A stretch of DNA of 64,000 bases from Escherichia coli (GCF_044324875.1 NZ_CP172185.1); one strand, 5' to 3'; shown: positions 13,059-17,439, counted from the first letter of the stretch. Program-made: numbers and translations. The notes: a model not told the origin generated them from the sequence alone.

Positions 13059-13272
13059 TTTATGCAACTCTGATTATGTAGCGTTCAGTGATGAACTGTT
13101 AATAATATTCTGTCGATCCGCTAAGTGTCAGTGTATGCGGTAAGCCTGCCCTTGAGTCACTGTTTGGCAACTGCTACATCTAAGGTGACGTTATCCGCTG
13201 ACATCGATATTCCCGTGGTGAGAGATAACCTAACGCACTATGCGGGTGGTTCTCATTGTAATTCTCGAACGC

Positions 13273-13788
13273 CTATGCAAGGTTATGCAATGCCGTTATT
13301 ACATTCGGTTTCTGTATGAACGCAATGTAGTCTTCCTTCATCGTTTTCACTAACCTTTCTGCCATTCCATTACTCTGAGAGCTGCTGATTGCCGTTGTGC
13401 AGGGCTCCAGATCCAACTCTCTGGCGAACTGCCGTGTTTCATGCGCTCTATACGCTGAACCGTTATCTGTCAACCACCGGATGGACTGTTCCGGTACTTT
13501 ATCGCCAAAGAGTTTTTCTATCGCTCCTAACATCACATCCTGCACTGTCGCTTTATTGTAACCTCCCGTATTGGATGCCCAGTCGATAGCTTCACGATCG
13601 CAACAGTCCAGAGCGAACGTAACCCGGACTTTTTCGCCATCATCGCAACCGAACTCAAAGCCATCAGAACATCAACGCTGGTCGCTTTCCTTACCGATAT
13701 TCGGCCTTTATGTTCCCGCTGCGGTCGTGATGGTTTGTCATGTAACAACAGGATATTTTCGCTCATTATCCGGTAAACGGTAAGCGTC
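13273..13788 (-). pseudogene. IS3-family (IS2-group) transposase OrfB remnant, frameshifted and truncated by the IS66 insertion
   Basis: YRIMSENILLLHDKPSRPQREHKGRISVRK... and ...[27 protein letters not shown] resemble IS2 InsD but lie in two frames. Confidence 0.6.
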
Positions 13789-13809
13789 AACGGAGCACCG
13801 TATTGACGC

Positions 13810-15423
13810 TTATTTATTGGTGAGTACTACGTTCCATGGCAGGAGTTCATCAACTCGGTTGGAAGGCCATTCCGGCAGTACGCTCAGGATATGGCGCAGA
13901 TACGCTTCCGGATCGATACCGTTCAGACGGCAGGTGCCGATCAGCCCGTACAACAGTGCTCCACGCTCGCCGCCGTGATCGCTGCCAAAGAACATAAAGT
14001 TTTTCTTTCCGAGACAGACTGCACGAAGCGCTCTTTCCGCAGCATTATTATCCGCCTCCGCCAGACCGTCATCACTGTAATAACAGAGGGCATCCCACTG
14101 ATTCAGTACATAGCTGAACGCTTCGCCCAGTCTGGATTTTTTCGACAGCGTACCATTCTTCTCCACCATCCATTCATGCAGCGACGTCAGTAACACTTTG
14201 CTTCGCTGCTGCCTGACGGCAAGACGCTCTGACTCCGCTAATCCCCGTATTTCATCCTCGATGGCGTACAGTTCACTGATTCGCTTCAGGGCTTCTTCTG
14301 CCGTCGCACTTTTGCTGCTGATGTATACATCGTGGATTTTTCGCCGGGCATGGGCCCAGCACGCAACTTCTGTCAGTGCACCACCTTCACGTTCTGCACT
14401 GAACAACCTGTCGTAACCTGTGAACGCATCCGCCTGCAGGATACCCCGGAAGGGGCGGAGGTGTTGCTCCGGGTGTTTCCCCTGCCGGTTCGGCGAGTAC
14501 GCGAACCAGACCGCTGGAGGAGATGACGAACCCACATTGCGATCATCCCGGACATACGTCCAGATACGCCCTGTTTTCGCCTTTTTCTGACCCGGTGCCA
14601 GTACCTTTACCGGTGTGTCATCAGTGTGAACCTTGCGGGTGTTCATTACATAACGGTACAGGGCATCATTCACCGGTGTCATTAACTGGCAGCACGCGTC
14701 AACCCAGTTGGAGAGTAAGGCCCGGCTCAGTTCGACACCCTGGCGGGCAAAGATTTCACTCTGACGATACAGTGGCAGATGTTCGCAGTATTTTCCCGTT
14801 AACACGCGGGCAAGTAATCCGGGGCCCGCGATACCACGCTCTATCGGGCGGGACGACGCCGGTGCTTCAACAATACAGTCACATTTTGTACAGGCTTTTT
14901 TTACCCGTTCTGTGCGGATCACTTTCAGGGCACTGCTCACCAGTTCCAGCTGTTCAGCGCTGACTTCCCCCAGATAATCCAGCTCACCGCCACACTCCGG
15001 GCAACAGCTTTCTTCTGGCTCCAGGCGGTGTATTTCACGGGGAAGGTGTGCCGGTAACGGACGACGATGGCGCGACTGTCGCAACTGGCGGGGAACCTGA
15101 GGATCGTCTTCCCGCCCACTGTAACGATCGCTGTCCTGTTCACGTTGTTTCAGCAGAGCCTCAGCCAGTTCAACTTCACGACGCAGTTTTTCAGAACGGG
15201 GACCGAACAGCATCCGGAGCAGTTTTTCTATCTGAGCCCGCAGATGTTCTATTTCCCGTTCATCTTCTTCGATCTTTTCTTCGGCACGTGTCAGTGCAGA
15301 GCGCAGGAAGGCTTCCCTCTCTTCAACCAGACTCAGTTGCTGGTCTTTCTGACGGAGGGCTTCAGCCTGCTCAGAGAGCAATCTTTCCAGCTCTGCGATG
15401 CGAATGAGGTATTTCTGACTCAT
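13810..15423 (-). CDS. IS66-family transposase (TnpC/orf3)
   Basis: 537 aa with N-terminal coiled coil, CPECGGELDY zinc-finger region and DDE-type core; IS66 transposase architecture. Confidence 0.9.
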   Translation of the reverse strand: MSQKYLIRIAELERLLSEQAEALRQKDQQLSLVEEREAFLRSALTRAEEKIEEDEREIEHLRAQIEKLLRMLFGPRSEKLRREVELAEALLKQREQDSDRYSGREDDPQVPRQLRQSRHRRPLPAHLPREIHRLEPEESCCPECGGELDYLGEVSAEQLELVSSALKVIRTERVKKACTKCDCIVEAPASSRPIERGIAGPGLLARVLTGKYCEHLPLYRQSEIFARQGVELSRALLSNWVDACCQLMTPVNDALYRYVMNTRKVHTDDTPVKVLAPGQKKAKTGRIWTYVRDDRNVGSSSPPAVWFAYSPNRQGKHPEQHLRPFRGILQADAFTGYDRLFSAEREGGALTEVACWAHARRKIHDVYISSKSATAEEALKRISELYAIEDEIRGLAESERLAVRQQRSKVLLTSLHEWMVEKNGTLSKKSRLGEAFSYVLNQWDALCYYSDDGLAEADNNAAERALRAVCLGKKNFMFFGSDHGGERGALLYGLIGTCRLNGIDPEAYLRHILSVLPEWPSNRVDELLPWNVVLTNK

Positions 15424-15453
15424 GACCGTTTTTATAATGCGGTCAGGAGTTTT

Positions 15454-15804
15454 TTACAACATTGTCAGTGAGTTACGGCTGGATGTTTTTGGCTGACGCC
15501 AGTCCAGCTTATCGAGGAGCATTGCCAGTTGCGAGCGGGTAATGGATACCTTGCCGTCACGTACCGCAGGCCAGATAAACTGGCCTTCCTCCAGGCGTTT
15601 GGTGAACAGGCACAGACCATCAGCATCAGCCCAAAGAATTTTGACGGTGTCACCCCGTCGGCCACGGAAGATAAACAGGTGACCGGAGAAGGGATTATCA
15701 TTCAGCACATGTTGTACCTGTTCTCCCAGTCCGTTGAAGGATTTACGCATATCGGTAACGCCGGCAACGAGCCAGATACGGGTACCTGATGGGAGTGAGA
15801 TCAT
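15454..15804 (-). CDS. IS66-family accessory protein TnpB (orf2)
   Basis: 116 aa, MISLPSGTRIWLVAGVTDMRKSFNGL..., characteristic IS66 orf2. Confidence 0.85.
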   Translation of the reverse strand: MISLPSGTRIWLVAGVTDMRKSFNGLGEQVQHVLNDNPFSGHLFIFRGRRGDTVKILWADADGLCLFTKRLEEGQFIWPAVRDGKVSITRSQLAMLLDKLDWRQPKTSSRNSLTML

Positions 15805-16226
15805 CTTCCCCTCCCGGTCAGTTCACGGATCAACACCGTGAGCAGCTCTGGCGATGGATTTTCCAGCGTCATGTTACCGTGACGGAATTCCACCTTGCAG
15901 GAACTGGCACTGACTCTGGTCTGAGTGGAAGTGGATAAAGACGGCGCAATGGCCGCCACAGGTTCTTTCTGCTCATCCGGCGTTATTTCTACAGGTAATA
16001 ATTCAACGCCAGTGTCAGAAGAGGTCGTTACCGGAAGACGCCGCGAAACACGCCCTTCGTTCTGCCAGAGCCTGAGCCATTTGAAAATAACATTATCATT
16101 GACGCCATTTTCACGTGCAATCTGTGCAACACAAGCTCCAGGTTGTGATGCCAGTTCCACCATACGAAGTTTGAATTCATTCGAATAGTTTTTACGAGGT
16201 TCTTTTCGCCAGTCCTGTAATTCCAT
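15801..16226 (-). CDS. IS66-family accessory protein TnpA (orf1)
   Basis: 141 aa, overlaps orf2 start by 4 bp (translational coupling); helix-turn-helix-like N-terminus. Confidence 0.8.
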   Translation of the reverse strand: MELQDWRKEPRKNYSNEFKLRMVELASQPGACVAQIARENGVNDNVIFKWLRLWQNEGRVSRRLPVTTSSDTGVELLPVEITPDEQKEPVAAIAPSLSTSTQTRVSASSCKVEFRHGNMTLENPSPELLTVLIRELTGRGR

Positions 16227-16319
16227 ACTTAGATGTCCGTCTATATCAGATGGGCGTCTAAGTTACCAATTCTCGTCTGATGGCTACATACGGCGGTCAG
16301 TTTACGCTTACGGTAAACG

Positions 16320-16760
16320 CGCTTTGCATTCACTAACGGTAGTCCTTCATTTAGGGACTGCCGCCTGAGTATCGCCCAGAACACGGCTTACCGGGGCTAT
16401 TCCTTGTCCGAAGGTAACAAGGGCACATGCGCTATCCATTTTCGCGATTGCGCATACTCCACCACTTCTTTGAGGATCTAAACTTCCATGGTTTTTTACC
16501 CAGCAAGAGCTGTAACTCTTTTATTTGTTTTATAGCGGCAGGCAGTTCTGAGGCAGGAACGACACCCTCTCCTGAAGCAACAGCAGTGAGACTTCCTTCC
16601 AGAGATTGTTTTTCCACTTAAACAACAGGCAGGGCTGAATACAACGCAAACGCGCCACATGTGACACCGCCATGCCAGGCTCCATTGTCTGCTGAATAAT
16701 GCCAATTTTTTCCTGAGGAGTTTTACGTTTACGAAGCTACAGCCCCGGCAAAGTTCCAGT
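16320..16760 (-). pseudogene. IS3-family (IS2-group) OrfA and OrfB N-terminus remnant, with stop codons and frameshifts
   Basis: Reverse strand encodes MDSACALV... (InsD-like N-terminus), [31 protein letters not shown] (InsC-like) and RKRKTPQEKIGIIQQTMEPGM with an in-frame TAG. Confidence 0.5.
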
Positions 16761-17439
16761 CATCTCAAAATTAGAACCAGTGTCAGACATATATCCAAGC
16801 CTGTCTCTTATTTTAAGATACATCCACTATCTGGCGTTTCAAGGGGCTGGTCCAGCTACAAATATTATTGAAAGAAATTTTTATGAAAACGAAGCTTTTT
16901 ACGATTTCTATCGGCATTGATGTAATATAGAAGAGTTATATAAATTATTCAAATCAAATTTTCTATTGAATATTTTCATTCACAGAGTGAGAAAGATGTA
17001 AAATAAAAATACAGGCTCATATATTATTACTTAACCTTACATGGATATCCTGAAATGACATTAATTATTAAGATAATAACGTTTTCATCGGTAGTAGTAG
17101 AAATAAACAAAATTTTAATTTCAAAAACTGCTTGTTTCTCGTAGTGAGGTACTTGTCTTTACTGATTCGGGTAACAGGAAAACATTTAAAATCATTCTGT
17201 TGCGCTCTTTCTGAGAGGCTGATTGCAAAATGGCATCTGAATCGATCGCAGTTGTATGACTCAGCGAGTAAGGCCAGGGAGGTGTTACCCACGAAAATAT
17301 GTACGGCCCAGAACGCGCTGGAACTCTTTTGATGCTCCAGCAAGAACTTAACCGAATGCCATTGGTACGCTGCCCCACAGAAAATTCCGTCACTAATGGC
17401 GGTAGCCGACAGATTCACATGGCGTTACCGCAGTAAACC

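Follow-up and report, generated by a model that had tools for sequence, protein, structure and literature searches.

In the IS66 family of insertion sequences a target duplication of 8 bp is the rule, and copies with matched 8-bp flanks are read as unrecombined, copies with mismatched flanks as recombined (PMC6778807). The terminal motif GTAAGCG has been described for other members of the family (PMC12888890). One member, ISEc23, has been annotated by PGAP in many genomes and plasmids, among them those of E. coli 042 and 2014C-4135. Copies annotated as 'IS66-like element ISEc23 family' lie in many unrelated chromosomal and plasmid contexts, and at least 80% of the element described below was covered in 3327 records. 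ISEc48 belongs to the IS2 subgroup of the IS3 family and is 1336 bp long (for example NZ_CP049348.1, 427206-428541; locus L003, 563-1898). It has its orfB in the -1 frame with respect to orfA, and a programmed frameshift is part of the PGAP annotation; an A6G or A7 slippery motif was looked for in ISEc48 and none was found. The names ISEc23, ISEc48 and the others used here rest on PGAP annotations of near-identical copies.

The DNA analysed, referred to as the window, is a stretch of 64 kb from E. coli. A complete IS66-family insertion sequence of 2532 bp with its genes on the minus strand was identified at 13780-16311. Over this full length it was 99.8-99.9% identical to PGAP-named ISEc23 copies, which are found in thousands of E. 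coli genomes and have the same length, termini and three genes as the window copy. The preliminary description had placed the element at 13789-16311; its end at 16311 was correct, but its start had to be moved to 13780. The termini GTAAGCG...CGCTTAC were as described there. The left inverted repeat, on the tnpA side, is located at 16288-16311 (minus-strand sequence GTAAGCGTAAACTGACCGCCGTAT) and the right inverted repeat, on the tnpC side, at 13780-13803 (plus strand, GTAAGCGTCAACGGAGCACCGTAT). The two repeats agree at all of the first 8 positions and at about 18 of the first 24, and the start shared by both ends, GTAAGCGT, fits the GTAAGCG terminus of the IS66 family. Eight ISEc23 copies elsewhere were sampled by rank of identity of the element itself, and all eight had identical end bases and each its own perfect 8-bp duplication.

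The genes tnpA, tnpB and tnpC are consecutive on the minus strand, which is the gene order of the IS66 family, and the stop codon of tnpA overlaps the start of tnpB. tnpA (15801-16226), identified as an open reading frame with profile matches, encodes a helix-turn-helix accessory protein of 141 aa, which scored 46 bits with Pfam HTH_Tnp_1 and 83 bits with the NCBIfam IS66-like TnpA model NF047595 (cutoff 74). tnpB (15454-15804), with an overlap of 4 bp with the end of tnpA, encodes an IS66 Orf2-type accessory protein of 116 aa, with scores of 125 bits for Pfam TnpB_IS66 and 121 bits for NCBIfam IS66_TnpB. tnpC (13810-15423) is a full-length open reading frame for a DDE transposase of 537 aa, matched by Pfam DDE_Tnp_IS66 at 327 bits and NCBIfam transpos_IS66 at 447 bits. 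Pfam LZ_Tnp_IS66, zf-IS66 and DDE_Tnp_IS66_C were matched by tnpC as well, and all four Pfam domains exceeded their gathering scores; the protein has the DDE domain, zinc finger and leucine-zipper region of an IS66-type TnpC. The NCBIfam models for IS66 TnpA, TnpB and transposase all exceeded their cutoffs on the window element.

The TnpA and TnpB proteins of the window copy are identical to those of the common ISEc23 allele. Six nucleotide differences from the commonest ISEc23 were found, all of them in tnpC, and five of the six are non-synonymous (R36T, L69R, P75T, S190P and A396P, with the residue of the window copy given before that of the common allele). The element can therefore be called intact with respect to its open reading frames only, since these five amino-acid changes mean that activity is not assured. 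The window copy may still be able to transpose.

ISEc23 is flanked on both sides by GGTAAACG, at 13772-13779 on the left and at 16312-16319 on the right. A flanking 8-bp duplication had also been reported in the preliminary description. The duplication is perfect and its length of 8 bp is that of the IS66 family. Two given 8-mers are identical by chance with a frequency of about 1.5e-5, and apart from these two copies GGTAAACG was found at a single position of the 64-kb window, 6451. The corresponding empty site was found in strain AR_0085, where a single GGTAAACG is present (L001, 4763-4770), and where window segments 12000-13779 and 16311-18500 map to abutting segments with an overlap of 9 bp. 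Many further genomes gave the same two-piece match pattern as AR_0085, with a coverage of 61%. As the same locus in other E. coli lacks the element and contains GGTAAACG only once, ISEc23 entered this site by a single simple transposition. Among related genomes, none was found in which the halves of the host element are separated by other DNA lacking ISEc23. Nor was there any sign that the two 8-bp flanks stem from different ISEc23 insertions, such as close relatives with two ISEc23 copies, each having GGTAAACG on one side only.

When the flanks of ISEc23 were joined, one continuous minus-strand reading frame was obtained across the insertion point, which bears out the InsD-like frame predicted earlier, and the joined sequence aligned end to end with ISEc48. 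The host is thus an older, decayed element of the IS3 family, and the clean insertion of an IS66 element into its orfB, as originally proposed, was upheld by the empty site, the 8-bp duplication and this contiguous alignment. The proximal part of the relic, at 16320-16860 on the minus strand, comprises the left inverted repeat, orfA as a pseudogene and the 5' end of orfB; the distal part, at 13141-13779 on the same strand, comprises the 3' two-thirds of orfB, where the rve DDE domain lies, and a right inverted repeat that is degenerate. Both parts were delimited by alignment to ISEc48. The relic spans approximately 13141-16860, the end near 13141 being derived from the alignment and uncertain by a few bases, and is 1180 bp long without ISEc23. 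An element was present as earlier reported, but not within the bounds of 13100-16790 given for it. The left inverted repeat ends with ...CCAGCTACA at 16860, which gives a terminal TG on the reverse complement.

Alignment to ISEc48 confirmed that both orfA and orfB of the relic carry stops and frameshifts. The lesions comprise a deletion of 158 bp, four 1-bp deletions, one 3-bp deletion, four in-frame stops and an eroded right inverted repeat. The 158-bp internal deletion, with its junction at 16372-16373, removed an N-terminal part of orfB and shifted the frame; in ISEc48 the missing segment is bounded by the imperfect direct repeats CGCCCAGACACGGC and CGCCCAGAACACGGC. Two stops and two single-base deletions are located in orfA. 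Within 13141-13779, 1 bp is missing near 13692 and 3 bp near 13753, and two in-frame stops are present. The last 33 bp of the relic are only 58% identical to ISEc48, and the inferred right terminal dinucleotide is not TG/CA. No repeat of 3-5 bp flanks the relic at 13141 and 16860, where the outer bases are ...TGCGG and AATAT...; a missing target duplication is expected if the right end has been eroded or truncated, and the family assignment of the coding remnants is unaffected.

The remnants have the layout of the IS3 family in the form of pseudogenes, orfA with a helix-turn-helix being followed by orfB with the rve DDE integrase core. After repair, OrfA scored 41 bits with Pfam HTH_Tnp_1, and OrfB 54 and 49 bits with Pfam rve and rve_3. 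The best NCBIfam match of repaired OrfB was IS2 transposase TnpB with 312 bits, followed by the IS3 family with 137 bits, both below cutoff because the relic sequence is truncated and damaged. The earlier label 'IS2-like' was therefore appropriate for the subgroup but not for the nearest named element. The relic was only 69-70% identical at the nucleotide level to other IS2 copies and to the genuine one in the window (1331 bp, 9211-10541), and its identification as IS2 was rejected, although the motif ...NAKRVYRIM... is found in both. The nearest named element is ISEc48, with an overall nucleotide identity of 88.5% and a common orfA(HTH)/orfB(rve) layout and left inverted repeat. The region where orfA and orfB overlap is conserved in the relic at 99%; the reading frames are broken. 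Identity to ISEc48 was 78-83% in orfA and 91-99% across most of orfB. As orfA is far more diverged than orfB, the relic may not derive from ISEc48 itself but from an unnamed or mosaic relative. The ISfinder criterion for isoforms is usually 95% identity, and at less than 95% the relic would not be an isoform of ISEc48. The correct label for the arrangement is ISEc23 nested in an ISEc48-like pseudo-element, and not IS66 in IS2.

The order of the two insertions could be read from the empty site. The relic of AR_0085 aligned to that of the window with no gaps and with 5 differing positions within 13141-16860, and the 158-bp deletion and the other indels are also present there; these indels therefore predate the insertion of ISEc23. 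In its uninterrupted form the relic is marked 'frameshifted; internal stop' by PGAP, and 132 records matched this form together with short flanks at 99% identity or more. The left insertion junction, on the other hand, was found in only two of 5,426 complete genomes, namely LH50-c, which came from poultry faeces, and ECCNB12-2, which came from chicken, and among ISEc23 copies the insertion site in the relic is common to the window and these two database genomes only. LH50-c carries the whole nested structure at 99.9% identity; compared with the window it is without the IS2 at 9211-10541 and has about 10 kb of extra DNA. In ECCNB12-2 the island is rearranged and the relic is broken at 13234-13239. 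In APEC 102026 a different IS3-family element has struck the relic independently. The insertion of ISEc23 is rare and probably recent, and it could be used to mark the lineage with this variant of the island, both genomes being from poultry.

The explanation that we favour, with a probability of about 95%, is that two independent transpositions followed one another at a single place in a genomic island, in an E. coli lineage associated with birds. First, an element of the IS3 family, IS2 subgroup, entered the interval that separates a TonB-dependent heme-receptor gene from a ugpB-like gene. This element then decayed through the 158-bp deletion between short direct repeats, 1-bp deletions, nonsense codons and erosion of the right repeat. 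Much later, ISEc23 transposed into the dead orfB at GGTAAACG, with duplication of 8 bp of the target, as is usual for DDE transposition in the IS66 family. The insertion was probably selectively neutral, and would have been retained, because the target was already non-functional. Dead insertion sequences may in this way act as safe landing sites and, in the case of ECCNB12-2, as a substrate for later rearrangement.

Assemblies typically go wrong at insertion sequences, and the nested structure could in principle be an artefact caused by a misplaced repeat. The probability of this is negligible, as the left junction is identical in two independent complete genomes, the full structure recurs in LH50-c, and real transposition is recognised by just such a combination of a perfect target duplication and a corresponding empty site. 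Hardly more credible was the suggestion, made before this analysis, that ISEc23 marks an IS66-mediated deletion or inversion of the island, with a second IS66 terminal fragment at 29.5 kb as the other endpoint. Such a fragment exists, but its real extent is 29273-29527 rather than 29265-29545. It is the solo left end of an IS682-like element of the IS66 family on the minus strand, with the start of tnpA and an inverted repeat that has a deletion of 4 bp. About 255 bp are left in the window, and these share 93-95% identity with IS682 copies at their tnpA end. Two IS66-family ends 13 kb apart in the same orientation, with similar outer flanks (GGTAAACG for ISEc23 and GGTAAAAC for the fragment), in an island that is rich in insertion sequences and rearranged in other strains, would be in line with such an event. 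However, over 250 bp the fragment shares only 70% identity with ISEc23, and it is found at the corresponding place in AR_0085, whose relic lacks ISEc23; together with approximately 33 bp of adjacent sequence to either side, it is matched by 368 records at an identity of at least 99%. Furthermore, window segment 16311-37738 is collinear with AR_0085 at 99.3%, except for a variable stretch inside a YadA-like gene, and 13789 and 29265-29545 do not mark the ends of a deletion or inversion. The empty site of ISEc23 is also a precise one. Its 8-bp flanks match each other, which argues against later recombination through this copy, and none has taken place in the window. The fragment was rejected as a rearrangement endpoint; it is unrelated to the insertion of ISEc23 and should not be taken for a scar of that event.

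The favoured explanation treats the insertion as random and tolerated in dead DNA. Attraction of ISEc23 by a preference, in sequence or structure, for terminus-like targets or for other insertion sequences was considered unlikely, though less so than rearrangement. The target GGTAAACG is similar to the terminus GTAAGCG, the IS682-like end adjoins GGTAAAAC, and flanks of the CCGGTAAA or CCGTAAAA type occur beside several ISEc23 copies. BLAST matches to the left junction continued for 12-25 bp into the DNA that flanks other ISEc23 copies, four of which showed CCGGTAAA-like flanks; these flanks were, however, selected by BLAST for likeness to the query. In the identity-ranked sample, two of the eight copies lie in the left inverted repeat of IS2 and one adjoins IS4, and the relic itself was struck again in APEC 102026 and broken in ECCNB12-2; yet insertion sequences pile up inside one another anyway, with no cost to the host. 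A scan of genome contigs with a 32-nt ISEc23 terminus gave four loci, which represent three distinct sites. The eleven target 8-mers recorded beside this terminus (GGTAAACG, GGAAAGCT, GAATGATA, ATATTTCC, CTATTTTC, GAGAATCG, AGCCATTT, AATATACG, CATGTATC, GTAAATAA and GATTAATA) were A/T-rich and had no consensus. The sampled ISEc23 sites showed no target consensus, in a sample too small to speak against a weak A/T or G-first bias. After the sampling of eight copies by element identity, the apparent preference was rejected as ascertainment bias. Slightly more doubtful still is the wider proposal that ISEc23 and other IS66 elements prefer insertion sequences or GTAAGCG-like sites such as GGTAAACG, with the relic as a recurrent landing pad that seeds rearrangements as in ECCNB12-2, or else that read-through from tnpC alters expression of the heme-receptor gene.

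All parts of the structure are known kinds of element and the arrangement is already annotated in one deposited genome; its importance beyond correct annotation is little. In a promoter and terminator scan of 12900-17000, no signal of relevance to the insertion exceeded shuffled controls, and no tRNA or Rfam matches were found in scans of the whole window. The heme-receptor gene is located 780 bp downstream of tnpC on the same strand, and its promoter-like sites, at 13131-13073 on the minus strand, are situated outside the relic and have not been affected.

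The insertion sequence of the IS66 family at window 13780-16311 was identified as ISEc23. The defining features of the IS66 family that were tested were found in this element, and the 2532-bp copy was 99.8-99.9% identical over its full length to elements labelled "IS66-like element ISEc23 family" by NCBI's pipeline. With at least 80% query cover, 3327 records were found for it, on chromosomes and plasmids and in many different contexts. Three full-length ORFs were present on the minus strand, tnpA (141 aa), tnpB (116 aa, with a 4-bp overlap with tnpA) and tnpC (13810-15423, 537 aa). 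All expected Pfam and NCBIfam models scored above threshold for the encoded proteins, with 327 bits for DDE_Tnp_IS66 and 447 bits for transpos_IS66. Compared to the commonest copy, the window copy had six nucleotide substitutions, every one in tnpC. As five of these are non-synonymous, "intact" would here mean ORF-intact only. This pattern, with every change in tnpC and most of them altering the protein, may reflect relaxed constraint or a separate allele.

The ends of the ISEc23 copy, GTAAGCG...CGCTTAC, are imperfect inverted repeats, identical at all of the first eight positions and at about 18 of the first 24. In the preliminary description the end of the element (16311) was placed correctly, while the start was set at 13789, 9 bp too high. 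Eight ISEc23 copies, sampled by element identity alone, had identical end bases and each its own perfect 8-bp duplication, so the boundaries are fixed independently of the locus in the window. The target duplication GGTAAACG is found at 13772-13779 and 16312-16319, one copy on each side, and the 8-bp duplication first reported around the element was thus confirmed, with a single copy at the empty site of E. coli strain AR_0085. No more than three occurrences of GGTAAACG were counted across the 64 kb of the window, and the probability of the same 8-mer at two specified positions by chance is about 1.5e-5.

The host of ISEc23 is a relic, extending from about 13141 to 16860 and 1180 bp long without ISEc23. 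As had been proposed, joining of the flanks restored a single continuous frame, on the minus strand (24 protein letters not shown), and the joined flanks aligned contiguously and end to end with ISEc48, whose extent of 1336 bp was set from copies in many contexts. The proposal of one older, decayed IS3-family element around the IS66 copy is borne out, and both reading frames contain stops and frame-breaking deletions. Two stops are present in orfA and two in orfB, and relative to ISEc48 a frame-breaking deletion of 158 bp is seen at 16372/16373, together with four 1-bp deletions and one 3-bp deletion. In ISEc48 the segment lost from the relic is bounded by near-identical 14-bp direct repeats. 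The left inverted repeat contains small insertions and the right end is hardly recognisable. A search at the ends of the relic for a target duplication of its own found none.

After codon repair, OrfB matched rve and rve_3, with the IS2 TnpB model as the top NCBIfam match, and repaired OrfA matched HTH_Tnp_1. The coding architecture is that of the IS2 subgroup of the IS3 family. The terminal repeats and the frameshift signal speak neither clearly for nor against this subgroup: the left repeat is recognisable and ends in TG, the inferred right end lacks the TG/CA dinucleotide, and ISEc48, in which PGAP annotates a programmed frameshift, had no A6G or A7 slippery motif. The label "IS2-like" was therefore right for the subgroup but not for the element itself, which is nearer to ISEc48; identity to IS2 was only 69-70%, also with the genuine IS2 copy of the window. 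With an overall identity of 88.5%, the relic is not an isoform of ISEc48 either. The orfA region (16496-16760) was 78-83% identical to ISEc48, compared to 91-99% for most of orfB (13181-13779), and from this difference the ancestor was probably an unnamed or mosaic relative.

In AR_0085 the relic is uninterrupted. Window 12000-13779 and 16311-18500 map to adjoining segments with a 9-bp overlap, and the locus contains a single GGTAAACG and no ISEc23. The same two-piece match pattern was seen in many other genomes. The relic at this empty site aligned to that of the window without gaps and with only five differing positions, so decay of the relic predates the ISEc23 insertion. Of 5,426 complete genomes, just two had the left junction (13630-13930) full length and near-identical, LH50-c (poultry faeces, Switzerland) and ECCNB12-2 (chicken, China), compared to 132 records that matched the uninterrupted relic and its short flanks with at least 99% identity. 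Together with the empty site, this shows that ISEc23 was inserted by simple transposition and, we infer, probably recently. LH50-c carries the entire nested structure at 99.9% identity. Nested insertion sequences are commonplace and the deposited annotation of LH50-c already shows ISEc23 within the relic; the finding is correct but ordinary.

A rearrangement mediated by IS66 had been suggested from a second IS66 fragment at 29265-29545. This fragment, at 29273-29527, is the left end of an IS66-family element, where the beginning of tnpA and an inverted repeat lacking 4 bp are found. Its identity was only 70% to ISEc23, compared to 93-95% to IS682 copies, and with short flanks it was found in 368 records at 99% identity or more. 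In AR_0085, without the ISEc23 insertion, the fragment lies in the same position, with a YadA-like gene on one side and the transketolase operon on the other. Apart from a variable stretch within the YadA-like gene, collinearity with AR_0085 extends over window 16311-37738, at about 99.3% identity. Recombination between two IS66 copies would leave them with unmatched 8-bp flanks (PMC6778807), and those of the window copy are matched. Rearrangement mediated by IS66 is therefore not supported in the window. Between 16.3 and 37.7 kb, the YadA-like adhesin gene (27906-28852) was the sole stretch without a clean alignment to AR_0085, and the length of this variable or repeat region differs among LH50-c, ECCNB12-2 and AR_0085.

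The relic has been hit more than once. ECCNB12-2 (NZ_CP033635.1, locus L005 17605-20776) has the same left junction between relic and ISEc23 as the window, and a partial ISEc45 and an IS3-family element have taken the place of the ISEc23 interior (window 14000-16179). The relic of this genome is broken at window 13234-13239, and the receptor side is inverted and moved, beside an IS2-like fragment. In APEC 102026 (NZ_CP087290.1, locus L019 ~2182-3490) a different IS3-family element, with an AL1L pseudoknot in its annotation, occupies another position in the same relic; this insertion is independent of the ISEc23 event. Both cases identify the relic as a repeatedly hit, dispensable stretch, which fits neutral retention. 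A genuine target preference of ISEc23 is conceivable but improbable. In its favour, GGTAAACG is similar to the terminus GTAAGCG, GGTAAAAC adjoins the IS682-like end and some ISEc23 copies have similar flanks. However, the copies with similar flanks were picked by BLAST for likeness to the query, and eleven target 8-mers beside the ISEc23 terminus were A/T-rich with no consensus; the terminus scan of genome contigs covered only four loci, so a weak bias may still exist. Insertion of ISEc23 into other insertion sequences is common. E. coli 042 and ETEC1747 (loci L013 and L017) each have ISEc23 within the IS2 left inverted repeat, with the duplication ATATTTCC and the flank GGATTTGCCCCTATATTTCC|...|ATATTTCCAGACACCTGTTA, and in locus L015 it adjoins IS4.

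To the right of the island the window is core chromosome (48573-63104), with cadC, cadB, cadA, a dtpD-like permease gene, lysU, dcuS, dcuR and dcuB, so the island adjoins cadC, in what we take to be the pheU integration region. Searches of the whole 64-kb window for tRNA genes and Rfam families detected none. The genuine IS2 copy in the window is 1331 bp long (9211-10541, ends TAGACTGGCCCCC... and ...GGGGCAAATCCA) and sits in a DUF4198-domain gene downstream of the heme-receptor gene (11033-13003, minus strand), with a perfect 5-bp duplication, GGAAT; AR_0085 has an empty site with one GGAAT at this position. The DUF4198 gene is uninterrupted in LH50-c and ECCNB12-2, which makes the window a fourth variant of the island. 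Relative to window 8821/8822, LH50-c (locus L002 6785-18224) has about 10 kb extra, from the PT-DNA restriction-endonuclease region to the DUF4198 gene, containing an IS2-like element, a TRAP transporter operon, IS110 and DsbD remnants, another IS3-family element and an ISCro1-like IS66-family element. The 10-bp tandem repeat ACATTCATAT (12995-13014) is present in two copies in the window compared to one in AR_0085. It directly precedes the start codon (13003, minus strand) of the gene for the TonB-dependent heme/hemoglobin receptor, and its copy number could alter the spacing of the translation signals of the receptor gene.
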